The position numbers and the translations under genes were made by a program. Shown here piece after piece: positions 6,911-39,043 of a stretch of DNA of 59,150 nt (position 1 is its first letter; every line of letters begins with the position of its first letter). The stretch is from an uncultured Candidatus Saccharibacteria bacterium. Its GTDB lineage: Bacteria; Patescibacteriota; Minisyncoccia; Phycocordibacterales; UBA9973. Under the pieces are notes generated by a model. That model searched no databases. It was not told the DNA's origin and saw only the letters and a program-made list of their open reading frames with translations. Location of the stretch: positions 1 to 59,150 of the forward strand of contig CAZLXA010000003.1 in the NCBI GenBank assembly GCA_964563715.1. Reading direction: 5' to 3'.

Positions 6911-6939
6911 AAAATCACAGGTCTGACCTGTGATTTTTT
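6910..6939. terminator. bidirectional intrinsic terminator between convergent rel and parB
   Basis: AAAAA-TCACAGG-TCTGA-CCTGTGA-TTTTTT. Confidence 0.75.
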
Positions 6940-8103: not shown

Positions 8104-8922
8104 ATGGCTAATCGTTGGACAAAAGAAGAAGAGTATAAATATCGGTCAGAGCTTTTAGATTATTATGTTAAACAAAATAAAAGTTTACGTGACATTTCAG
8201 AAATTCTAAATATTCCAGAATCAACAATTTTCAAAAGAATGGAACGTTTACAAATAAAAACAAAGCCTCATTTAAAAGAGAATTATTTAAAGAAAAGAAA
8301 GGGCATAAAAATTCCTAATAAATATTCTGTGGATTTGGCCGAATTTTTTGGAATAATGCTAGGAGATGGACATATAAGTCACTTTCAAATTGTTGTCAGT
8401 TTGGGAAATAAAGAAGAAGAATATGCAAAATATGTTAGTTTGCTTATAAAAAAGATATTCGAAACAGATGCAAAAATTTCTATTCGTAAGACCGGATATA
8501 GAGACGTTTATCTTGGTTCAGTTGATATAACTTCATGGTTATTTAAAAAAGGGCTAGTTTCAAATAAAGTTAAATCCCAAGTAAATGTTCCTTCGTGGAT
8601 TTTTAGTAAAGATAAATATATGAAAAGTTTTTTAAGAGGATTCTTTGATACAGATGGATCAGTGTATAAATTAAAATACGGTATCCAGATATCTTTTTGT
8701 AATAGATCATTACCTATTCTTAAATCTTTACAATTAATGTTAAAAAGGTTAAGATATAATCCATCGAGTGTTAGTTTATATAATCTATACCTTACCAGAA
8801 GGAAAGATGTAAAAAGATTTTTTGAAGAAATAAAACCTTCAAACCATAAGCATACAAGTCGATATTTAAAAATTGAAAACGATTTGCGCCGATCGGATAG
8901 CGGCTATTCCAGGAGACTGTAA
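8104..8922 (+). CDS. free-standing LAGLIDADG homing-endonuclease-like protein with an N-terminal HTH
   Basis: 272 aa. Two LAGLIDADG motifs are present: LAEFFGIMLGDGHIS and FLRGFFDTDGSV. The N-terminal SLRDISEILNIPESTIFKRMERL looks HTH-like. The 3' end overlaps tRNA-Tyr by 37 nt. Confidence 0.85.
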   Translation: MANRWTKEEEYKYRSELLDYYVKQNKSLRDISEILNIPESTIFKRMERLQIKTKPHLKENYLKKRKGIKIPNKYSVDLAEFFGIMLGDGHISHFQIVVSLGNKEEEYAKYVSLLIKKIFETDAKISIRKTGYRDVYLGSVDITSWLFKKGLVSNKVKSQVNVPSWIFSKDKYMKSFLRGFFDTDGSVYKLKYGIQISFCNRSLPILKSLQLMLKRLRYNPSSVSLYNLYLTRRKDVKRFFEEIKPSNHKHTSRYLKIENDLRRSDSGYSRRL

Positions 8923-8968
8923 ATCTCCCACCCTTTGGGTATCGTTGGTTCGAGTCCAACTCGGCGCA
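8886..8968 (+). tRNA. tRNA-Tyr (anticodon GTA), long variable arm, no encoded CCA
   Basis: Acceptor stem GCGCCGA/TCGGCGC with discriminator A. Anticodon stem GGAGA/TCTCC with loop CTGTAAA. Long variable arm. T arm GTTGG-TTCGAGT-CCAAC. Confidence 0.9.
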
Positions 8969-8992
8969 CAAAACAAACAAACCCTGAAAAGT

Positions 8993-9021
8993 AAAAAACA
9001 CAGGCCTTGCCTGTGCTATTT
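8993..9021. terminator. intrinsic terminator, best on the minus strand for clpB
   Basis: AAAAAA-CACAGGC-CTT-GCCTGTG. On the minus strand the hairpin is followed by TTTTTT. Confidence 0.7.
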
Positions 9022-12391: not shown

Positions 12392-13696
12392 TTATTTCCA
12401 CTTTTTATATTTCTCTAAAATCTTTTTTAATTCCTTATATAATACATCGATGTCTTCTTTTTTATTACCCCTTCCCAAGGAAATTCGAAGTGAACCTTCT
12501 TCTATTCCATCTTTGGGACAAATTTTTCGAATAGCCTTAATAACATATGAACCTTGATCGTCGTCACTTTTGCACGCACTTTTTTCCGAAACATAAATAC
12601 CTCGAGCAGAAAGTTCAATAACTAAAAGTTCGCTTGATATCCCTCTGATTGAAATATTTATATTATTGGGTAATCTTTTTTCCTTATCGCCATTTAAAAT
12701 TATTTTGTAACCTGAAGTATCAGAGAGTGATAGTAATTTTTCGATTCCATAATCTCTAATTTTTGTCAGCCTCTCTGTTTCTTTTTGTTTAATTTTATTT
12801 GTTATTTCAAAAGCAGAAGTTACTCCGGCAATTAAAGAAACACTTTCCGTGCCAGAATGTAAACCAAATTCTTGACCTCCCCCACTATATAATGGAGACA
12901 AATCTATATTTCTTTTTTTATATAAAATACCAATTCCTTTCGGTCCATAAATTTTTGAGCTATTGAAGGTCATTAAATCAACACCCAATTTCTCAATATT
13001 TTCAGTCGGTAAATAATTCATTGCCTGACATGCATCCGTATGGAAAACAGGAAGAAGAGCGGGAAAAGGCCTTGCCTCAATAGAGCCCGAGGCAAGGCCT
13101 TGAGGAGCTCTTTTTATTTTCCTAAACCTTCTAATTATTTTTGCGATTTCTTCTATTGGTTCTATTGTTCCAATTTCATTATTAGCGTACATAACTGAAA
13201 CTAAAACTGTATTTTCTTTTAGTGATTCTTCCAACTCAGAAAGATCTACAATTCCATTTTTATCAACCGAAACATATGTCACTTCGGCCTGCCCTCTTTC
13301 TTCGAGCATTTTACAATTTTCAAGTACGGCAGGGTGTTCTATTTTCGTCGTCACAATATGTGGAATTTTGTATTCTGTATTTTCATTCTTAATTCTTAAT
13401 TCGTAATTCGTAATTATCCCTATTATTGCAAGAGCATCGCTTTCTGTTCCGCTTCCGGTAAATATTATTTCATCACTATGCGCATTTATTAATTTAGCAA
13501 CTTTTTTTCTTGACTCTTCTATAATATTTCTTGCTTTTACACCCCTATCATAAATAGCGCTTGGGTTTGCAAAAAATTCTCGCTCATAAAAAGCGACTTG
13601 TCTGCCAACCTTTTTATCAATGGGTGTAGACCCTGCATGATCTAAATATATTATTTTCTTTCTAAACATATTATTACTATACCATATTTCCATCAC
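12392..13696 (-). CDS. class V aminotransferase / cysteine desulfurase (NifS/IscS-like)
   Basis: 434 aa. Motifs: YLDHAGSTP, FTGSGTESD, FHTDACQ, PLP-lysine region FNSSKIYGPKGIG and Cys loop SEKSACKSD. The likely true start is the MFRKKIIYLD ATG at 13669. Confidence 0.9.
   Translation of the reverse strand: MMEIWYSNNMFRKKIIYLDHAGSTPIDKKVGRQVAFYEREFFANPSAIYDRGVKARNIIEESRKKVAKLINAHSDEIIFTGSGTESDALAIIGIITNYELRIKNENTEYKIPHIVTTKIEHPAVLENCKMLEERGQAEVTYVSVDKNGIVDLSELEESLKENTVLVSVMYANNEIGTIEPIEEIAKIIRRFRKIKRAPQGLASGSIEARPFPALLPVFHTDACQAMNYLPTENIEKLGVDLMTFNSSKIYGPKGIGILYKKRNIDLSPLYSGGGQEFGLHSGTESVSLIAGVTSAFEITNKIKQKETERLTKIRDYGIEKLLSLSDTSGYKIILNGDKEKRLPNNINISIRGISSELLVIELSARGIYVSEKSACKSDDDQGSYVIKAIRKICPKDGIEEGSLRISLGRGNKKEDIDVLYKELKKILEKYKKWK
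13066..13101. repeat. GC-rich 13-bp perfect inverted repeat inserted in-frame in the cysteine desulfurase gene
   Basis: AAGGCCTTGCCTC-(10 nt)-GAGGCAAGGCCTT. It encodes part of the extra loop RAPQGLASGSIEARPFP just before the conserved FHTDACQ. Confidence 0.75.
13388..13415. repeat. four tandem heptamers C[T/G]TAATT inside the cysteine desulfurase CDS
   Basis: cttaatt cttaatt cgtaatt cgtaatt, read on the coding strand as ITNYELRIKN. Confidence 0.75.
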
Positions 13697-14217: not shown

Positions 14218-14251
14218 ATAAATTTATATTTTCAAAAATAAATACAAGCTA

Positions 14252-14336
14252 CACAAATTATATTCCGAAAAAAGTCCTCGGATGAGGGAGGACGAGGAGC
14301 CAGACATTTTTTCGTAAAATAATTTGTTCCGCTTTA
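14252..14336 (+). repeat. hairpin-forming leader element, copy A, ending 7 nt before the infB ATG
   Basis: The 22-nt left arm CACAAATTATATTCCGAAAAAA and the 35-nt right arm AGACATTTTTTCGTAAAATAATTTGTTCCGCTTTA are identical to copy B. ACAAATTAT pairs with ATAATTTGT, and CGAAAAAA pairs with TTTTTTCG. Confidence 0.8.
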
Positions 14337-14343
14337 AACTTTT

Positions 14344-15852
14344 ATGCCAGAAAAAACACAAACAATTGAAAAAGTTCGCCCACCCGTCGTTGTTGTTATG
14401 GGGCATGTTGATCATGGTAAATCAACTCTTTTAGACTATATTCGTAAATCAAACATAGTTGAAGGTGAAGCCGGTGGAATTACCCAACATATCAGCGCTT
14501 ATGAAGTGATGAGTATAGATGATAATGGAGAAAATAGATTAATTACTTTTTTAGACACTCCTGGCCATGAAGCTTTTTCAAAAATGAGAACCAGAGGGGC
14601 CGCAGTAGCCGATATTGCTATCCTTGTCGTTTCAGCCGAAGACAGCGTCAAAGCTCAAACACTCGAAGCTTATAATACAATCATTGAAAGTAAAACTCCT
14701 TATATTGTGGCTATTAATAAAATCGATCGCCCAAATGCCAATATCGAAAAAACGAAAATGGATTTAGTCGAAAAAGGCATATATTTAGAAGGTTTAGGTG
14801 GAGACATTCCTTTTGTCTTAATCTCTGCTAAAGCCGGTACTGGTATTGATGACCTTTTAAGTATGATTATTCTGGTGGCTGATTTAAATGAATTTAAGGC
14901 TAATCCTCAATTAAATGCCTCCGGTGTTATTATTGAAGCCAAGCGTGAACCAAAACGTGGAATTTCTGCTACGGGCGTCATAAAAAATGGAACTTTAAAA
15001 TCTGGAATGTTTGTGGCTTGCGGTGAAGCTATCGTCACAACTCGAATACTAGAAAATTTTAAAGGTTTACCTATTAAAGAAGCAACTTTCTCTTCACCTA
15101 TTAAACTTATTGGTTTTGAATCAATGCCAGAAGTTGGTAATATTTTTCAATCATTTAAAACAAAAAAGGAAGCTGAAAATTATGTTGAAAAAATAAAAGA
15201 AGAAAATTTAAATAATAAAAGTAACGAAAAACAAGAAACAACGACTGGGAAAATTATTCCGATAATTATAAAAACTGATGTTTCAGGAACAATTGAGGCA
15301 ATTGAAAAAGAAATTAGTAAATTAAATACTTTAGAATTATCATTTAAAATAATTACTAAAGGAGTTGGAGCCATAAATGAGTCTGATCTTAAGATGGGTA
15401 ATGTTAATAAAGAAAGTGTTATTGTTGGATTCAATACAAAATTAGATAATGGAGCTCGTGATTTAAATGAAACACTAAAAGTTAGAGTTGAAACATTTAA
15501 CATTATTTATAAATTGATAGATTGGCTAAAAGAAATCGTTGAGGAACGCCGTCCTCGCCAGGAAACAATTGAGGTTATTGGATCACTTAAAATTTTAAAA
15601 ACTTTTGGAGGAAGTAAAGGGAAACATATAGTTGGAGGTAAGGTTACAATTGGAAAAATTACTTATGGAAGTAATATTCGTATCATTCGTCGTGATTTTG
15701 AAATCGGCACAGGGAAAATTGTTGAATTACAAGTTAATAAAATAAAATCAAAGGAAGTTCAGGAAGGGTCAGATTGTGGACTCCAAGTTGAAACCAAAAT
15801 GGATATTGCCGCCGGTGATGTGCTTGAAGCGTTTGAAATTAAAATCGTTTAA
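14344..15852 (+). CDS. infB: translation initiation factor IF-2 (short form, no N-terminal extension)
   Basis: 502 aa. G1 GHVDHGKSTLLD, G3 DTPGHEAF, G4 NKIDR. Confidence 0.95.
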   Translation: MPEKTQTIEKVRPPVVVVMGHVDHGKSTLLDYIRKSNIVEGEAGGITQHISAYEVMSIDDNGENRLITFLDTPGHEAFSKMRTRGAAVADIAILVVSAEDSVKAQTLEAYNTIIESKTPYIVAINKIDRPNANIEKTKMDLVEKGIYLEGLGGDIPFVLISAKAGTGIDDLLSMIILVADLNEFKANPQLNASGVIIEAKREPKRGISATGVIKNGTLKSGMFVACGEAIVTTRILENFKGLPIKEATFSSPIKLIGFESMPEVGNIFQSFKTKKEAENYVEKIKEENLNNKSNEKQETTTGKIIPIIIKTDVSGTIEAIEKEISKLNTLELSFKIITKGVGAINESDLKMGNVNKESVIVGFNTKLDNGARDLNETLKVRVETFNIIYKLIDWLKEIVEERRPRQETIEVIGSLKILKTFGGSKGKHIVGGKVTIGKITYGSNIRIIRRDFEIGTGKIVELQVNKIKSKEVQEGSDCGLQVETKMDIAAGDVLEAFEIKIV

Positions 15853-15861
15853 CAAAAGCTT

Positions 15862-15936
15862 CACAAATTATATTCCGAAAAAACTGTAAGAGGAAAAGGG
15901 TAGACATTTTTTCGTAAAATAATTTGTTCCGCTTTA
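15862..15936 (+). repeat. hairpin-forming leader element, copy B, ending 9 nt before the rbfA ATG
   Basis: Same arms as copy A, with a different and shorter central segment (CTGTAAGAGGAAAAGGGT). Confidence 0.8.
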
Positions 15937-15945
15937 TTTATATGT

Positions 15946-26520: not shown

Positions 26521-29500
26521 CTAATTCTCTGACGGTATTGTGTTTGAGTCATCTGAAACAGGGCTTTCAGGAAGAGATACTACCACTGTTGTGTCATTAA
26601 TAGGTTCCGTTACTGTTTCAATAGATGGAGTAATAACCGGCTCTGTATCGATAAGAGGAAGTGGATTTGTAACGATTTCATTTTCAACTACTGGGGGATT
26701 TTCTGTTTCAATAGGAGGAGTAGCGACAGGTGGAGGCACCACAGTCGGTGTAACTTCAATTTCAGGGGTAGTGACATCTGTATTTGCTGTTCCCTTTGCA
26801 TTTATCAACATTTGTTTAAATTCTTCTTTTGTAATGCAGACATCATCAACACAAACATCACCGTTGACATGAAAAATATTGGCGGTAAATTCTTTGGCGA
26901 AAGTAGCTTGCTCTGCTAAAAATCGAGTAATAAGAGAACCGAGAGAATTATCCTTACTTGTATCTAAAGATGAAAGTTCTTTCACTATAAGGTCCATCTC
27001 TTGTATGGCCTTCACAGTGTAAGGTATTAAATTTGTATAAGAAATAGATTTCAAATTTGTATTCGGATCTGTAAAAACAATATCAGGGAATATTTGTTCT
27101 ACCTCTTGAGCAATAAATCCGACATGCTTATTTGTATTATCATTTTCATTATTCCAGTTATACATTACAGGTGTCAAAGCAAGTATTTTTTCTAGAGATT
27201 TCGAAGATGTATCAATATTTTCTTTTAAAATAAATTCAGAATTTTCGAGTGTTGTTATATTTTTCTTTAAATTTATATCTGAAGAACAAGCAAGTGATGC
27301 GGTTGTCGGATTTATATCGCAAGTCCCAGTACTGTTTTCAAATCTTACAACGATTCCAGAAACTGTATTATTACCAACTTGGAGTTGATATGAAGGACTG
27401 GTATTTCCAATTCCGACATTGCCTAAATTATCAACAGACATCAAATCAATTAAAGAATTTTTAAACCTAATACCACCAATTGATTGATTTAAAATCTCGA
27501 CATAACTAGTTATCCCTGAACCTGCATGATTGAGTCTACCATTTCCTCCAAACGCGATTGTTGATGATGATTTAATGTTACCCAATACATCTAAATTTGC
27601 AGCCGGAGTAGCTGTCCCAATTCCGACATTGCCGCCAAAATAACTTATAGCAGTACCTGCACCATAATATCCATACCTTCCTGTACCACTTGCAACATTA
27701 GTTTCTATCGCTCTAAAATCTGGAGCCGAGGTGAGAGTTGGATTAACATAAATCCCTCTTGTAATTCCATTTGCTGTTCCAGTTTGATTTACCGTAGGTG
27801 CGATATTTAATACATTAAATGTTGTACTATTTGACGCTGTAGCAATAGTTGGAGTTGAAGTAATTATATTTTGAGTTATACCATTAGTAGCCCCAGTTGC
27901 CATCGTACCATTCCCTAATCTTATAAAATTGGTAATTGTAGCACTTGCGTTTATGTCATAATCAATTATTGGACCAATGGAATTCGAGGTAACATTATTT
28001 ACAAAAAATGTTCCTGATCCTGCTGACAATTTTATAATATCTGTAGCAACAGTTGAAGTACCAACTACATGTAATTTACCCGTTGGTGTCGTCGTACCAA
28101 TACCTACATTACCGGATCCTGTTATCCTCATATTCTCCCTGAGAGTAGCTCCTCCTGTATCATAATTTTTAAATGCAAGGTCATAAGTTGCATTTGTTAT
28201 GGCAGCATTACCAGACCAGTTTAAAGTAAGCCCACCTCCAGAGAAAGCTATATCTCCAACTACTGTTAATTTACTACTCGGACTCGTCGTCCCAATTCCG
28301 ACATTACCAGAACTATTAATTCTCATCATTGTTGAACCAATTGTATTATTATTATTCCAAGAACCAACCTTAAAATCTAAATAATTTGTAGTTCCAATAT
28401 CAGTATGACCAGCAACAATTTGAGCCATCGATGTATTGGTATTACCCCCACCTGCTGTATTGCCATTAAATTTTATTATCCCTCTATCTCCATATGCCGT
28501 AGTATTATTATATAAACGTAACGAGGTACCAGCGGTAGATATTCCTGTTATATCAAGTAATTCACTTGGACTCGTCGTCCCGATGCCGACATTGCCGTTA
28601 GTATTATCTATCGCCATCCTTGTAGTAGCACCAGTTGAAACAGTACCTCCTGCTCCAAAGAAAAACTTTCCATTGAAAGTACCTATGTTAACGTCACCAT
28701 TGTTCCAACCAAAATAAGCTAAACCAGGAACTGTGGTACTTTTTGTATCATTAAAAAATCCAGCCATATAAGGTGATTCACTTGGGGCATGAACGGCTAA
28801 AGCAAAAGGGGTAACATTATATAAATCTACACTCTTAACTTCCAATTTTCCTAAAGTCGGTGTCGTCGTCCCAATCCCGACATTGCCGCTTGCCAAAACA
28901 TTAAGTAGATTATCATTATTGTACATTCCGATTGAAAAACGATTACTTGTTGAACCATCAGAAACATGCACATAATCAAAATGAGCTGAGTTATTTGTTG
29001 ACTTCGCTTTTCCAAGAAGGAACAATGATCCACTATTATTCACAATGTTTGGAGTCAATCCTTCGTATACCCATGAGAATACTCCACTTGAACCAGCAGA
29101 CGTATTTGATGTAATGAATGGAGCAACTTGAGTCGAAGCTGATGTTGCTCTGACAACACCATTTACGTCAAGAGGGTACGCAGGAGTTGTCGTCCCAATG
29201 CCGACATTGCCATTACCCATTACAGCAAATCTATTACCACCTATTAAAGTATAAGATAATCCTGAAGCTGTATTTGAGAAAGCAACTGAAACAGTAAGAA
29301 CTGTATCACTTGCAATTGTTGAAATTATTCTAGCTGTTTCTCCTGATACTGTAACTGTATCTCCGACCTTAAAAGTGCTCAAGAATGATGTGTTGGTTCC
29401 AGTCAGTGTCGTTGTTCCTGTAGTTGCGACTGTTCCGTTACCTGTTGTACTTTGTATAACATTATATAGGCCACTTAATCCAGTGCTTGATCCCGTCGCA

Positions 29501-32500
29501 AATCTACCTGCGGTATCAGAATAAAACATATAATTACCACCAGCGGTACGAAAACCACCACTAAGATTAGATAAATAATATTCATTACCTTTAATAGGCC
29601 CACTCGTTCTAACTCCATAACTACCATTAGTTGTTGTATTAAATTCTGTCAAGAAAGTACTATTTACTTCAAGTTTTGCAGCTGGATTAGTAATTCCAAT
29701 ACCTACGTTGCCTGCACTTGTAATTCTCATTTTTTCTGAGGTCACAGAATCTAAAGCAGAGCCGAAAGAAATAAAACTATCGTTAGTTGTATTTGTAGTA
29801 GTCCACTCCTGTTCTTTACCGAACCTCAAATACCCAGCAGAAATAGGAGCTGAAGAAGTTGTTCTAGCAAAATATGCATCTTGAGTAATAGAATGCGATA
29901 TGCCCGACGATTGGTCCATATTTCGTAGGGTAATAGGGATAGCATCTCCGTTATTATTATAATTCACGAGCAACTGACCATTTGAATTTATTTGAGTATA
30001 TCTTATTGTAGAATTCGTACTTCCTACATGCAAAAGGGCTCCCGGTGCCGTCGTCCCGATGCCAACATTACCAGAAGGATTTATAACAAATTCACTTGTT
30101 CCTCTAACATTTTCACCAGAAAAAATTTTAAAATTATTATCTGAATTATCAAGACCAATACTGTATTCAACTGCAGCATTAGTATTTGCAGAAAATTGCA
30201 CTTGAGAATCATAAGCAGAGCTACTAAAAGCATATAATTTCAAATTAGCATTTTCTCCCGCTTTGTATATTTCCAAATTTGCCCCTGGCGTTGTTGTTCC
30301 AATACCGACGTTGCCTGTACTTCTATTTATTGTCAATCTATCAACAAAGCCAGCACCTTCCATACTTTGTACATTAAAAGTATTTGCAGAAGCCCCATTA
30401 TAAAATAATTTGAAACCATAACTTGTTCCAGTTATTAAAGAACCAGCACCTTCTGCCATTACAAAACCGCTATCCTGATTTGCCCCAGACACTAACCCAA
30501 CTAAGGCATTATTAGCAAAAGCACTATCTCCAATTTGCAACGGAACTGTTGGCGTTGTCGTTCCAATACCAATATTACTAACCCCAATCGACATAATAGT
30601 CGTCGCTGCTCGAGAAATTTCTAAATTTCCAGTTAATGCGCTTAACGCAATTGTCGCTCTACTAGCACCGACTCTTTCTATTCTTATACCATCATTCGCT
30701 GTATCCCCTGACTGTAATATACTTAGTAACCCTGTAGGAGTATTTGTCCCAATCCCGACATTACCACCATCAATAACAGATAAAGCCGAGTTTGCTCCAT
30801 CTAAAAATTCTACAATCTTTCCTGTTCCATTTTGATTCACAGTCAAACCAGTAAGAGTAGAATTTCTTGTTATATCAATACCACCAGAACTTACCGTCAT
30901 ATTGCCGTTCGGTAGAAAAATGCTACCATTTTCAATTCTAAAATTACCCGTTCCAAGATTTAATAATGTTGTTGGACTCGTCGTCCCAATGCCGACGTTA
31001 TTTCCAGATGGATTTAAAGCAAGATTACTATTATACGATTGTATTGAAGAATATGTATTAGTTGCACCGAGATTAAAAGAAAGAGTCGTATCACTTCCTC
31101 CTGGTCCTATTTGCAATTTTGCAATCGGACTCGTCGTCCCAATCCCAACGTTACCATTCAATAACGTCTTTGTGATATTTGTATTTCCAAGAGTCACAGT
31201 ATTACTCCCTTGCCCTATTGCATTATATCCAATAACAATTTCATTATCAGTTCCATTGTCACTAGCCTTAGAATTACCACCTAAATATAATCCATTATTA
31301 CCAGTTGTTCTTTCTGTTATCCCATCTGAAATATACCTGGCTGACTGATAGCCATAAGCTGTATTTAAAGAACCGGTTGTATTTGAAACCATAGAGGCGT
31401 AACCACTCGCAGTATTGTTTCCAGCAGTAGTTGAAGAGAGTGCGTAAGCGCCATTTGCCGTATTATTACTACTAGTAACATTAGCAAACAAAGACTCTCT
31501 ACCTATTGCAGTATTGTTTGTTCCTGTTGTATTAGAATATAATGCAAGTATTCCAATAGCCATATTATTATTACCTGTCGTGTTTGAAGTTAATGTTCTA
31601 TAACCTAAAGAAGTATTATTAAATCCGGTAGTATTTGAGGTAAATGACTCACTACCAATAACTGTATTCAGTGAAGATTGTGAAGCCATAGTAGCAGTTG
31701 AACCAGTTGTAAGATTGCCAGCCCCGATTCCAATAAAAATATTATTACCAGTTGGAGTTATTGAATTACTATTTAATCCATAACTAAAATCAGAAATAAA
31801 AGGCGATGATCCTTTATAAATTATTCCATACGGAGTACTCCCTGTTGTTGTTGGTAGTCTAAAGTTTTTTGTAATTTCTAATTGCTGATTTGGTGTTGTT
31901 GTTCCAATGCCGACGTTACCATCTTTATCAATCCTCATTTTTTCTGAATTAACAGAACCATTGTTTGTTTGGAAAATCAAATACCCTTCAAGATTTGTAG
32001 TATAGTTTGCATATATACCTGCAATATTACCCCAAGATGGTCGTCGAAAATTTATCGATTGACCATTTTCTATTATTAGATTACCTGCTGAAATATGTAA
32101 TTTTTCTAATGGATTTGTCGTTCCAATGCCGACGTTTCCATTATTTAAAATAGTAACTTTATCAGAACCGCCAATCATAAAATGAAGTGGGTAAAGTCCA
32201 ATATTATTTATATATCCATCTCCTGTATTGGTATTAGAATATAACTCCATATAATTTCCACCACCACTTCCATCATATCCAAAAATAAGTTTTGGTGTGT
32301 TCCCAATCGTTGTTGCTCCTATTCTTATTCCTTTATCGGTAAGATGTAATCCTGCGGTCGGTGCCGTCGTTCCGATACCCACATTACCTGTGTTGTCAAT
32401 CAACATCCTAGTAAGAGAATCAGAACCGAAACCACCTGTTCTGAATGCTAATGTTCTTCCAGATGCGCTACCTAGAATCATTCTAGAAGACCCATCAAAA

Positions 32501-34215
32501 AACAAAGCTCCTTGTGAATTTGAAAATAAAAATTGATGACTATCTGTGGAATCATTTCCAATTAAAACATTTCCCTCAACTTCTAATTTTTGAGTTGGGT
32601 TTGTTGTTCCGATTCCAATATTTCCATTACCATTCATTCTCATATATTCTGTACTTCCAACCATAAATTTAACTGCGTAAGAAGAAGAATATGGTTTTAT
32701 AAAAAAATCTGTAGAACCAATAACCCCTGCAATACTACTAATTTGCCCCGATCCCATATTTAAACCAGCGATATAACTTGTAGTCCAATATTTACTAGGA
32801 ATTCCGAGTGAACCACCAGATGATACTGTTGGAACAATATTCCCAGTCACAGTTAATGCATCAGTTGGTGATGTCGTTCCCATTCCAACTCGGTGATTCA
32901 CACTATCAACAAATAAAGTATTCGTATCAACAGTTAAATTATGTAGACCCAAATCAACATTGGTATTTCCACCTGTATAAGGAATTAATCCTGACAAATT
33001 AGAAGGGGTTAAATAATTTCCCGCTGGTTGTTTATTATTAAAAGTTAACCAATCTGTTGATGCTAGATATCCATCAACCAAATTTGTGGCCACTCCTAAT
33101 TTTGTTTTTATAGAAGAATTTGTTTCATCTCCTGTATTTGTCCCAGAAAGATTTGAGCCAATAATATTTCCTGTGGCTAAAATATTCCCGTCTACACTTA
33201 TTTTCTCTGAAGGAGTACTTGTCCCTATTCCCAACCTAGAATTCGTACTATCCCAAAATAAATTTGTATTATCCTCTGTAAGTCCAGATGCTCCCTGGAA
33301 TGGAATTGAACCGAAAGTAAATGCGGGGTTAATAGTCCCAACTACATTTCCCGTGAGGTTACCGGTGATAGTTAGATCTCCGTTGATATTTGCATCACCT
33401 GAAACAATAAGAGATTTTGTCTCTACTTCATCTGCTAGTGAATTAGATAACCCTTTGATGCTGTCTGATATAGAATCAAATATTTTACTGACTTGTCGAG
33501 AAAAAAATACTTCTGAGACAAAATTAGAAACATCGATACTGTTTCCGTTTTCACCTTTCGGTCCTTGAGGGCCAACTGGCCCAATCAAACCTTGTGAACC
33601 TTGAATTATTTTTGTATCTGTTTTAGTTATTTGGATTGCTGGTGGAATAATTTCGTTTTTTGTTGTTTTTGGATTTTCTTTATTTGATGAGGGAATACTA
33701 GGAACAGTTTTCTTTGAAGTATTATTATCAGAAATAATTGTATCAGTATTTTTATTGTCGATTCCTATAACTGCTTGATTAAGAGCAATTCTTGTTTCAA
33801 CAAAATTGTTTATTAGTCCTTTTATAAAATAGTTCCAACCATAAGCTAGGTCGCCAGCGACTGAGACTAGAGACGATCCGAGTGAGGTATTATTTGTATA
33901 TTCTTTATTAGAAAGTGGGATAGAAATATCGATAGCAGTTGCAGTAAGATTTGTTTTCTTATTTACAGAAAATTCTGTTGTTTTGATTTCAAATTGATTA
34001 TCTAAATTAGAAAAATCTGGAATATTTTTCTTAAACAATGAAAGTGAATCATTTATTAAACATGCAACATCTGTATCATTGCATACGATTCTTTCTGTTA
34101 TCTTTTCGTTATTATAAGCAAGTAATATTTTAATGGGAAAAGTCACAAAAATAACAAAAATCAGTATAATGAAAAATGTATACTTATAATTTTTTATTTT
34201 TTTATTTTTTTCCAT
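26521..34215 (-). CDS. giant membrane-anchored fibre protein: collagen-like stretch, ~20 GNVGIGTT repeats, C-terminal tail-fibre-type intramolecular chaperone (Peptidase S74-like) domain, Pro-rich tail
   Basis: 2564 aa. TM anchor FFIILIFVIFVTFPIKILLAY. Collagen-like run GSQGLIGPVGPQGPKGENG. The motif GNVGIGTTxPxxxLxV recurs about 18-20 times by my count. The C-terminal module reads CSSDINLKKNITTLEN...LTPVMYNWNN...HVGFIAQEVEQIFPDIV...YTNLIPYTVKAIQEM. Confidence 0.9.
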   Translation of the reverse strand: MEKNKKIKNYKYTFFIILIFVIFVTFPIKILLAYNNEKITERIVCNDTDVACLINDSLSLFKKNIPDFSNLDNQFEIKTTEFSVNKKTNLTATAIDISIPLSNKEYTNNTSLGSSLVSVAGDLAYGWNYFIKGLINNFVETRIALNQAVIGIDNKNTDTIISDNNTSKKTVPSIPSSNKENPKTTKNEIIPPAIQITKTDTKIIQGSQGLIGPVGPQGPKGENGNSIDVSNFVSEVFFSRQVSKIFDSISDSIKGLSNSLADEVETKSLIVSGDANINGDLTITGNLTGNVVGTINPAFTFGSIPFQGASGLTEDNTNLFWDSTNSRLGIGTSTPSEKISVDGNILATGNIIGSNLSGTNTGDETNSSIKTKLGVATNLVDGYLASTDWLTFNNKQPAGNYLTPSNLSGLIPYTGGNTNVDLGLHNLTVDTNTLFVDSVNHRVGMGTTSPTDALTVTGNIVPTVSSGGSLGIPSKYWTTSYIAGLNMGSGQISSIAGVIGSTDFFIKPYSSSYAVKFMVGSTEYMRMNGNGNIGIGTTNPTQKLEVEGNVLIGNDSTDSHQFLFSNSQGALFFDGSSRMILGSASGRTLAFRTGGFGSDSLTRMLIDNTGNVGIGTTAPTAGLHLTDKGIRIGATTIGNTPKLIFGYDGSGGGNYMELYSNTNTGDGYINNIGLYPLHFMIGGSDKVTILNNGNVGIGTTNPLEKLHISAGNLIIENGQSINFRRPSWGNIAGIYANYTTNLEGYLIFQTNNGSVNSEKMRIDKDGNVGIGTTTPNQQLEITKNFRLPTTTGSTPYGIIYKGSSPFISDFSYGLNSNSITPTGNNIFIGIGAGNLTTGSTATMASQSSLNTVIGSESFTSNTTGFNNTSLGYRTLTSNTTGNNNMAIGILALYSNTTGTNNTAIGRESLFANVTSSNNTANGAYALSSTTAGNNTASGYASMVSNTTGSLNTAYGYQSARYISDGITERTTGNNGLYLGGNSKASDNGTDNEIVIGYNAIGQGSNTVTLGNTNITKTLLNGNVGIGTTSPIAKLQIGPGGSDTTLSFNLGATNTYSSIQSYNSNLALNPSGNNVGIGTTSPTTLLNLGTGNFRIENGSIFLPNGNMTVSSGGIDITRNSTLTGLTVNQNGTGKIVEFLDGANSALSVIDGGNVGIGTNTPTGLLSILQSGDTANDGIRIERVGASRATIALSALTGNLEISRAATTIMSIGVSNIGIGTTTPTVPLQIGDSAFANNALVGLVSGANQDSGFVMAEGAGSLITGTSYGFKLFYNGASANTFNVQSMEGAGFVDRLTINRSTGNVGIGTTTPGANLEIYKAGENANLKLYAFSSSAYDSQVQFSANTNAAVEYSIGLDNSDNNFKIFSGENVRGTSEFVINPSGNVGIGTTAPGALLHVGSTNSTIRYTQINSNGQLLVNYNNNGDAIPITLRNMDQSSGISHSITQDAYFARTTSSAPISAGYLRFGKEQEWTTTNTTNDSFISFGSALDSVTSEKMRITSAGNVGIGITNPAAKLEVNSTFLTEFNTTTNGSYGVRTSGPIKGNEYYLSNLSGGFRTAGGNYMFYSDTAGRFATGSSTGLSGLYNVIQSTTGNGTVATTGTTTLTGTNTSFLSTFKVGDTVTVSGETARIISTIASDTVLTVSVAFSNTASGLSYTLIGGNRFAVMGNGNVGIGTTTPAYPLDVNGVVRATSASTQVAPFITSNTSAGSSGVFSWVYEGLTPNIVNNSGSLFLLGKAKSTNNSAHFDYVHVSDGSTSNRFSIGMYNNDNLLNVLASGNVGIGTTTPTLGKLEVKSVDLYNVTPFALAVHAPSESPYMAGFFNDTKSTTVPGLAYFGWNNGDVNIGTFNGKFFFGAGGTVSTGATTRMAIDNTNGNVGIGTTSPSELLDITGISTAGTSLRLYNNTTAYGDRGIIKFNGNTAGGGNTNTSMAQIVAGHTDIGTTNYLDFKVGSWNNNNTIGSTMMRINSSGNVGIGTTSPSSKLTVVGDIAFSGGGLTLNWSGNAAITNATYDLAFKNYDTGGATLRENMRITGSGNVGIGTTTPTGKLHVVGTSTVATDIIKLSAGSGTFFVNNVTSNSIGPIIDYDINASATITNFIRLGNGTMATGATNGITQNIITSTPTIATASNSTTFNVLNIAPTVNQTGTANGITRGIYVNPTLTSAPDFRAIETNVASGTGRYGYYGAGTAISYFGGNVGIGTATPAANLDVLGNIKSSSTIAFGGNGRLNHAGSGITSYVEILNQSIGGIRFKNSLIDLMSVDNLGNVGIGNTSPSYQLQVGNNTVSGIVVRFENSTGTCDINPTTASLACSSDINLKKNITTLENSEFILKENIDTSSKSLEKILALTPVMYNWNNENDNTNKHVGFIAQEVEQIFPDIVFTDPNTNLKSISYTNLIPYTVKAIQEMDLIVKELSSLDTSKDNSLGSLITRFLAEQATFAKEFTANIFHVNGDVCVDDVCITKEEFKQMLINAKGTANTDVTTPEIEVTPTVVPPPVATPPIETENPPVVENEIVTNPLPLIDTEPVITPSIETVTEPINDTTVVVSLPESPVSDDSNTIPSEN

Positions 34216-38937: not shown

Positions 38938-39038
38938 CCCTGTAGTGAATTTTGCCAATGCATATATAATGCGTAAATTTTCTTAAAATTTACTTTGGCA
39001 AAATCTACTACCGGGAACACCCGGTAGTGAATTTTGCC
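38938..39038. repeat. long GC-cored hairpin (38993-39038) plus an orphan half-copy of one arm (38938-38959)
   Basis: TTGGCAAAATCTACTACCGGG-AACA-CCCGGTAGTGAATTTTGCCAA. The arm GTAGTGAATTTTGCCAA recurs at 38942-38958. Confidence 0.7.
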
Positions 39039-39043
39039 AATAA

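Follow-up and report, generated by a model that had tools for sequence, protein, structure and literature searches.

Repetitive extragenic palindromic (REP) sequences, the hairpin-forming doublets of these sequences (REPINs) and the REP-associated tyrosine transposases (RAYTs) are known as extragenic systems, mainly of Proteobacteria, and palindromes that lie in frame within genes are a hallmark of Rickettsia. Here we describe a GC-rich hairpin inside a NifS/IscS-type cysteine desulfurase gene, located on a stretch of 59,150 nucleotides (hereafter, the window) from an uncultured Candidatus Saccharibacteria bacterium (assembly GCA_964563715.1, contig CAZLXA010000003.1), a member of the candidate phyla radiation (CPR) or Patescibacteria, in which, as far as can be judged from sequence comparison, REPIN-like traits (a hairpin doublet with a cognate RAYT) and Rickettsia-like traits (in-frame location in housekeeping genes) are combined. 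The REP/REPIN-RAYT systems have been described in Pseudomonas and Enterobacteria (Bertels and Rainey, 2011, PMC3116915; PMC3337134; PMC5581495), and the Rickettsia palindromic elements (RPEs) are Rickettsia-specific families of ~100-150 bp with no known transposase (review PMC10969869, citing Ogata et al.). We consider it probable, at roughly 0.75, that the palindrome is a REPIN-like element of a Patescibacteria-wide family that is mobilised in trans, and that is tolerated and translated in a permissive loop of the host protein.

With the REP/REPIN-RAYT systems, the family described here shares short palindromic units (~20-40 nt in those systems, here 17 nt) and their arrangement in inverted doublets that form a hairpin (here with a core of 36 nt), the location of the repeat on the flanks of a Y1/HUH transposase gene, a cognate repeat of its own for each RAYT paralog, the conserved synteny of the RAYT, and the presence of single units at gene ends as terminator-like hairpins. 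In contrast to REPs, which are extragenic by definition, many of the copies are intragenic, in frame and apparently translated; the doublet is smaller (36-62 nt) than the REPINs of SBW25, with their spacings of ~70-110 nt; the apparent copy number per genome is low; and the transposase scores below the NCBIfam cut-off for RAYTs. The likeness to the RPEs consists in the presence of in-frame palindromes in unrelated housekeeping open reading frames (ORFs), in the small AT-rich genome and in an added peptide that fits the fold, whereas the size (48-62 nt) and the tie to a RAYT-like gene differ, and the element is set apart from the RPEs by description and by a consensus of its own. The GC clusters of yeast mitochondrial DNA and the palindromic coding repeats of Methanocaldococcus jannaschii are likewise small GC-rich palindromes in AT-rich genomes, some of them in frame in coding sequence and polymorphic between lineages; their hosts and sequences differ from those analysed here, and we know of no association of either with a RAYT. 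Quasipalindrome template-switch mutagenesis, known from Escherichia coli genetics, edits existing hairpins; it could explain arm swaps, flips, corrected loops and outward growth of the stem, but not dispersed identical copies. No description of palindromic elements, REPINs or RAYTs in CPR/Patescibacteria turned up in the literature that was searched.

The palindrome in the cysteine desulfurase gene

The host gene (12392-13696, minus strand) is an intact ORF of 434 aa whose product matches the Pfam family Aminotran_5 (E 2e-61) and has IscS/NifS cysteine desulfurases as its best solved relatives (PDB, E 5e-75). The protein retains the defining features of NifS/IscS-type cysteine desulfurases, namely the class-V aminotransferase fold, the pyridoxal phosphate (PLP) lysine in the motif SSKIYGPKG, the H-x-D-A-x-Q signature in the form HTDACQ, and the catalytic cysteine loop SACKS; moreover, D220, Q223, K247 and C374 are invariant across 62 orthologs. 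An initial annotation of the window had reported a perfect, GC-rich 13-bp inverted repeat with a 10-nt loop inside this coding sequence, and direct reading of positions 13066-13101 confirms it: the element core (13066-13101, minus strand) consists of two inverted 13-nt units, AAGGCCTTGCCTC at 13066-13078 and GAGGCAAGGCCTT at 13089-13101, separated by the 10-nt spacer AATAGAGCCC. Each unit contains the 11-nt family core AGGCCTTGCCT or its complement, and each arm is itself palindromic (AGGC-CTT-GCCT or AGGC-AAG-GCCT). The repeat continues imperfectly into 27-nt arms (13052-13115) that are 78% complementary. The bounds of the full element, a copy of the subfamily that we denote Fam1, were set at 13053-13114 (minus strand) from 38 copies, by alignment and with a covariance model, R1; an extended three-tier hairpin (13042-13122, minus strand) also takes in the host-encoded flanks AGGAAAAU...GUUUUCCU and AGAGC...GCUCU. 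In all, the hairpin spans 62-80 nt.

This island is far richer in GC than its surroundings, as had been pointed out (~0.58-0.60 locally vs 0.33 for the window, which is part of a Paceibacterota contig), and the earlier estimate of well below one chance occurrence in 59 kb agrees with the computed expectations for the window, which are 0.06 for any perfect inverted repeat that has arms of 13 bp or more and a loop of 3-20 nt, and 7e-5 for such a repeat with at least 8 G:C pairs. Five repeats with arms and loops of these lengths are present in the window, and the four besides the one in the desulfurase gene are AT-rich intergenic terminators. Folding of 88 nt of the sense strand gives -41.5 kcal/mol (z -7.2) as RNA and -22.2 kcal/mol (z -6.1) as DNA. 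When the window is searched with the R1 model, the element in the desulfurase gene scores 78.8 bits (E 2.5e-23) and is the sole hit of its kind there, and Rfam scans of the window at the gathering threshold and of positions 12950-13220 at E up to 10 returned only tRNAs and noise.

At the protein level, the translated insertion (13058-13108, minus strand) encodes APQGLASGSIEARPFPA, which makes up residues 196-212 of the protein (433 aa), within a region of the ORF that encodes ...RAPQGLASGSIEARPFPALLPVFHTDACQ. The loop at this site has 29 residues, compared to 5-12 in solved IscS/NifS structures, which bears out the earlier claim of an extra loop directly before FHTDACQ, where few residues are the norm. 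Between the motifs YANNEIG and HTDACQ, species-representative genomes encode 32 residues in archaea and other outgroups, 39 in most Patescibacteria and 44-76 in scattered lineages; among 120 close orthologs, which without exception belong to the Paceibacterota type, the segment that runs from PIEEIAK to FHTDACQ is 27-66 residues long. The insertion is also in frame, as initially proposed: orthologs with an empty site (L002 and L206, 77-78% identical) are 14 codons shorter than the window copy, and the Patescibacteria baseline is 16 codons shorter in a codon-level comparison. The initial annotation further called for modelling of the loop on a predicted structure. In an AlphaFold2 model of the host protein (mean predicted local distance difference test score, pLDDT, 83.9), residues 197-211 fall below 50; this segment coincides with the inserted residues 196-212 and lies between the helix 180-195 and the strand 216-220, which carries the PLP-binding aspartate. 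The inserted residues are predicted, on this model, to form a disordered loop at the protein surface, immediately ahead of the strand with FHTDACQ. Taken together, these comparisons show that the insertion is in frame and 14-16 codons long, that it lies in a permissive surface loop, and that the cysteine desulfurase is intact in other respects.

The dispersed family and its RAYT-like genes

A search of the genome for the arm sequence had also been proposed initially; in metagenome contigs, related copies proved to be abundant. A scan of metagenome contigs with the pattern AGGCCTTGCCT-N(3-30)-AGGCAAGGCCT, which has 22 fixed bases, retrieved at least 120 loci; for a database of this size, about one chance match or fewer would be expected. 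Among the matches listed, to which the counts and host names that follow refer, the contigs mostly have a GC content of 26-47%, and 62 of the ~135 core copies are located within stop-free ORFs of 180 aa or more, which fall into ~31 unrelated protein clusters, with cysteine desulfurases accounting for only five of the 62. The hosts identified with Pfam include ComEC, PriA, ATP synthase gamma, a SAM methyltransferase, an M50 protease, RNase R, Dus, topoisomerase I (TopA), LeuRS, IleRS, ArgRS, EF-G, DNA polymerase III alpha (DnaE), an AIR-synthase-related protein, an M1 peptidase and CarA, among others. The Pfam domains of these proteins span the insert or flank both its sides, and the reading frame is kept in all hosts of inserted copies.

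Fam1, the subfamily of the window copy, was delineated by an alignment of 38 distinct copies and has the consensus tGGCTCCTCA-AGGCCTTGCCT-TGGGCTCCCTTA-AGGCAAGGCCT-TTTCCCGCCa. Besides an outer stem, these copies share a non-palindromic, asymmetric internal loop (TCCTC opposite TTCCC) and are therefore homologous rather than convergent hairpins. They are found in either orientation with respect to the host gene and in at least five reading frames; ~15 copies lie outside long ORFs and have AT-rich, terminator-like outer stems. In the contigs with multiple family members (L084, L097, L120, L132, L141 and L180), all copies within a contig are of a single subfamily, which points to spread, or else homogenisation, within a genome. 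One of the Fam1 hosts, an IleRS-like ORF of 1,339 aa (contig L171, 6308-10324, minus strand), contains, in addition to the Fam1 element, a histidine-phosphatase (His_Phos_1) domain inserted in the catalytic domain of the synthetase.

The window contains, besides the in-gene doublet, two single units at gene ends, both of them extragenic 17-nt hairpins. The first, CACAGGCCTTGCCTGTG (8999-9015, unstranded), lies between the tRNA-Tyr gene and the clpB stop codon and scores as a bidirectional intrinsic terminator; the second, CACAGGTCTGACCTGTG (6916-6932, unstranded), occupies the centre of a 20-bp perfect hairpin at the convergent relA/spoT-parB junction and is identical at the same junction in L206. 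As noted in the initial annotation, the 11-mer AGGCCTTGCCT recurs at 9002-9012, within the clpB/tRNA-Tyr terminator. Some 11-mer in common with the remainder of the window turns up in 23% of simulations (p ~0.23), which is not significant by itself; the connection is drawn instead because this specific 11-mer is expected only 0.005 times and because the clpB unit resembles the flanks of RAYT-like genes. Specifically, the clpB unit has the family core as its loop and exactly the stem, CACAGG/CCTGTG, of the hairpins that bracket the RAYT-like gene of L210, and CACAGG-N5-CCTGTG is found twice in the window compared to an expectation of 0.02. Judging by these similarities, the clpB terminator and the hairpin in the desulfurase gene are members of one putative REP-like family, the in-gene copy being an inverted doublet of such units. 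The earlier suggestion that a terminator palindrome was copied into the coding sequence thus stands with a refinement: the link to clpB is real, but the terminator need not be the donor. In the same region, a 272-aa ORF with a LAGLIDADG_3 homing-endonuclease-like domain (8104-8922, plus strand) overlaps the first 37 nt of tRNA-Tyr (8886-8969).

At the level of sequence, the present analysis shows the family core to be the hairpin that flanks a clade of RAYT-like Y1/HUH transposase genes. Core hairpins are found on both sides of Y1_Tnp genes in L084, L180, L094 and L156, the two hairpins of each of the contigs L084 and L180 bracketing an ORF of 207-217 residues, and adjoin such genes in L093, L141, L196 and L120/L150. 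Such placement at the flanks of RAYT-like genes is the defining arrangement of the REP/REPIN-RAYT systems (PMC3116915). The RAYT-like ORFs match Pfam Y1_Tnp with 30-33 bits, above the 23-bit cut-off, and belong to a clade of more than 7,700 homologs, some of which are source-named Candidatus Nomurabacteria or Gracilibacteria, with at least 95% conservation of the motifs H78-F-H80 (HUH) and Y138-x-H-L-N-P; a PDB sequence search with the RAYT-like protein returned no match. With tblastn, RAYT-like genes were detected in 12 of the 120 listed pattern loci vs none of 88 others (87 ortholog loci and the window; Fisher p 0.0015), and in nine of the 12 the gene abuts a core hairpin. Furthermore, in three contigs picked by protein similarity alone (L208, L209 and L210), all the RAYT-like genes are flanked by the core or by variants that differ in 1-3 nt.

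The RAYT genes on three Fam1-bearing contigs, L146, L109 and L121, were considered as support for Fam1 and rejected, those of L146 and L109 having other flanking palindromes and that of L121 having no core hairpin beside it. A second RAYT paralog in L180 is also flanked by a different palindrome. Given these different palindromes at L146, L109 and the second L180 paralog, each RAYT-like enzyme appears to have its own cognate repeat. The palindromes that accompany the paralogs (L180 219-842 and 2709-3368; L146; L109) are the AGGCCTTGCCT core, GTAG-TAGGCCCGGCCTA, TGTCAAAGACGGTCTTTGACA and CTGTCAAACACCCGATGTTTGACAG, and L180 harbours two RAYT-repeat pairs within 3.5 kb. In five contigs (L084, L180, L094, L208 and L210), the RAYT-like gene is located beside rplJ-rplL, with the enzymes being only 44-60% identical; this synteny, conserved for a "transposase", suggests vertical inheritance of a single-copy RAYT-like gene.

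In REPs, one end is marked by a conserved tetranucleotide, GTAG or CGTC (Di Nocera et al., PMC3733652), unlike in Fam1, which has no such tag and in which CTCA/TTTC adjoin the core; among the matches listed, GTAG abuts the core in one subfamily only (L086, L112, L114 and L117). In L086, L094, L097, L104, L112, L114 and L141, the core hairpins are followed, 8-10 nt on, by the DnaA-box-like sequence TTATCCACA or TATCCACA, which may be a DnaA box or a feature of the element, and which in L094 and L141 at least belongs to a RAYT-like gene's flank. The nearby parB and the occurrence of TTATCCACA beside some hairpins also suggested a parS-like or origin-linked site, which was set aside: the sequence is not parS, and those copies of TTATCCACA lie in RAYT flanks.

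History of the desulfurase site and competing explanations

Orthologs retrieved by protein identity alone (L201-L207) trace the fate of the resident copy. Two of them have the exact core. L204 and L205 share a GGT...AGA variant in which C:G is replaced by T:A on both arms, at synonymous positions; the RAYT-like genes of L208 and L209 are flanked by this very core variant. In L203, the two arms are exchanged; L202, together with L001, shows one-sided decay towards AT; and L206 has an empty site. Orthologs of equal loop length carry the palindrome or a decayed copy of it, rather than a loop of the same length without palindromic DNA. Elsewhere, the same desulfurase loop contains Fam1 in another frame (P0018), flipped Fam1 (L089 and L003), Fam1 whose own loop encloses a second palindrome (P0050), or unrelated strong hairpins (L008, L034, L037 and L007; z -4.7 to -11.4). 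In a neighbour-joining tree of the orthologs, filled sites, empty sites and other insert types are interleaved. Because of this interleaving and of the variety of inserts in one loop, the desulfurase site is a recurrent landing place at which resident copies are kept, edited or lost by lineage. In the orthologous neighbourhoods of L204 (4711-7422) and L207 (590-3298), the interval between DUF4446 and the cysteine desulfurase gene contains an MmeI-type restriction-modification gene and small accessory genes, and is a variable island beside the desulfurase gene.

Under the REPIN-like interpretation, a RAYT encoded elsewhere in the genome would recognise the folded single-stranded hairpin and copy or move it, by analogy with TnpA(REP) and the IS200/IS605 elements. 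Within genes, only those copies whose length, frame and peptide are tolerated would survive. The copy in the desulfurase gene would then be translated into a disordered loop of 16-17 residues, with no termination of the gene, and the two intergenic single units of the window would double as terminators. The upkeep of hairpin pairing and sequence at synonymous positions in several lineages, next to decayed, flipped, nested or missing copies in others, is counted in favour of this interpretation, as is the match between the core variant of L204 and L205 and the RAYT flanks of L208 and L209.

Several observations weigh against this interpretation. The NCBIfam model REP_Tyr_transpos is the best and only NCBIfam match of the RAYT-like proteins, but with 26-37 bits it remains below the 80-bit cut-off. 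No RAYT gene was found in the 59-kb window with tblastn, and the cognate enzyme of this genome is assumed; nor was a RAYT found that is flanked by the exact Fam1 variant, the core alone being shared. A target-site duplication was sought by comparison of filled and empty sites, whose boundaries were not definable because the loop is too diverged. With the R1 model, no Fam1 copy except those at the cysteine desulfurase site was detected in 1.24 Mb of ortholog neighbourhoods, and no further or degenerate one in the window. Classical REPINs number tens to hundreds per genome; here, the copy number looks low, with one doublet and two single units in the 59-kb window and, among the matches listed, two exact-core matches each on contigs of 593 kb and 457 kb. 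Finally, strong synonymous conservation at saturated distance could reflect a host-level function instead of activity of the element.

The last point leads to the strongest of the alternatives, namely that the hairpin is primarily a host-selected functional nucleic-acid element, which might affect the stability or processing of the mRNA, make translation pause or be bound by a DNA- or RNA-binding protein, with a RAYT link that is historical only. Among the orthologs found by protein only, codon identity where the amino acid is shared amounts to 0.79-0.94 inside the element vs 0.41-0.62 in the rest of the gene, as would be anticipated for such a function, and the element persists at the same codon position in orthologs that are only 56-76% identical. 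The very strong folding, the compensated pairs and the covarying outer stem fit in as well: in Fam1, this stem lies in host-specific flanks, and 77.6% of its cells are paired, with double changes in seven of eight pairs, compared to 30-63% in slid controls. A selected function at this locus is, however, difficult to reconcile with orthologs in which an empty site is interleaved with filled ones on the tree, with the uncompensated decay in L001 and L202, with copies in both orientations, several frames and unrelated genes, with unrelated hairpins that hold the same site in other lineages, and with the absence of any matching Rfam family. We consider this alternative unlikely.

Far less probable is a local origin, in which template switching or fold-back replication at a small pre-existing repeat, AGGAAA...TTTCCT, generated the hairpin without any copying from elsewhere. 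The host flanks are themselves complementary, different hairpins occupy the same site in different lineages, and the arm swaps, flips and "corrected" internal loops of L203, L089 and L003 resemble template-switch products. Nevertheless, the same 52-62-nt sequence, including the internal loop, is present in ComEC, LeuRS, Dus, IleRS, a methyltransferase and intergenic sites, and the arms are no copy of the gene sequence around them; copies already in place may be reshaped by template switching, but a family cannot be created by it.

That the hairpin terminates or attenuates transcription within the cysteine desulfurase gene, as suggested by the GC-rich stem, by four U after the core on the sense strand and by a T-run after the extended hairpin on the antisense strand, is similarly hard to credit: intrinsic terminators have a GC-rich stem, a loop of no more than 8 nt and then a U-tract, a terminator scan that calls the single clpB unit on both strands does not call this hairpin, the half of the gene downstream of it is intact and contains the PLP lysine and the catalytic cysteine, and the reading frame is kept in every host. 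A chance palindrome or an assembly artefact, in favour of which one could cite only the derivation of the window from a metagenome contig, is excluded by the expectation of 7e-5 and by independent assemblies (ENA, JGI, Logan and NCBI) that have the same element at this site. CPR genomes encode ComEC, DprA and pili, and a DNA-uptake signal was also considered; it was rejected because the density is ~1 per 20 kb, not ~1 per kb, and the element is an insertion rather than a product of accumulated point mutations.

Other repeats of the window and the meaning of the family

Several other repeats were observed in the window. Two imperfect inverted-repeat elements of ~85-95 nt (14246-14334 and 15850-15940) are located just upstream and just downstream of the gene for initiation factor IF-2; both have the form AAGCTxCACAAATTATATTCCGAAAAAA ... 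GACATTTTTTCGTAAAATAATTTGTTCCGCTTTA, with nearly identical arms and different centres, and the two could form a second repeat family or share a leader or regulatory hairpin. An intergenic region (38938-39040) contains three 21-nt units, CC(C/G)GTAGTGAATTTTGCCAA, two direct and one inverted, that include a 21-bp hairpin (38995-39040); the unit carries GTAG and may belong to a second, GTAG-tagged REP-like family in this genome. Recurring GC-rich segments, for example GTCGTCCCAATxCCGACATTGCC at ~27597, 28850, 29166, 30016 and 32343, are also found in an ORF of 2,564 aa (26521-34215, minus strand) that probably encodes a repeat-domain surface protein.

Returning to the REPIN-like family, we tentatively raise a more far-reaching possibility, to which we would assign well under even odds, namely that intragenic, translated REPINs are a maintained feature of Patescibacteria rather than tolerated junk. 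A vertically inherited RAYT would keep a small population of fixed-core hairpins in essential genes; these would be conserved at synonymous sites over deep divergence, would track the RAYT-specific core variant of each lineage, and might provide a nucleic-acid-level service to the host or to the RAYT-REPIN partnership, for instance in RNA processing or by serving as landmarks in single-strand DNA. Repeated remodelling of surface loops in core enzymes would then be a side effect.

The importance of the finding lies in the location of a RAYT-linked hairpin family within the coding sequence of essential enzymes, in tiny and tightly packed CPR genomes. For annotators, there is a note of caution, in that GC-rich hairpins inside CPR genes may be neither terminators nor assembly errors. 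If the REPIN-like interpretation is correct, it would account for some of the lineage-specific insertions by which CPR proteins are typically marked and would provide a named candidate enzyme for an RPE-like process. Furthermore, the filled, decayed, flipped, nested and empty states of the site would form a natural series for the co-evolution of a hairpin with a protein loop.

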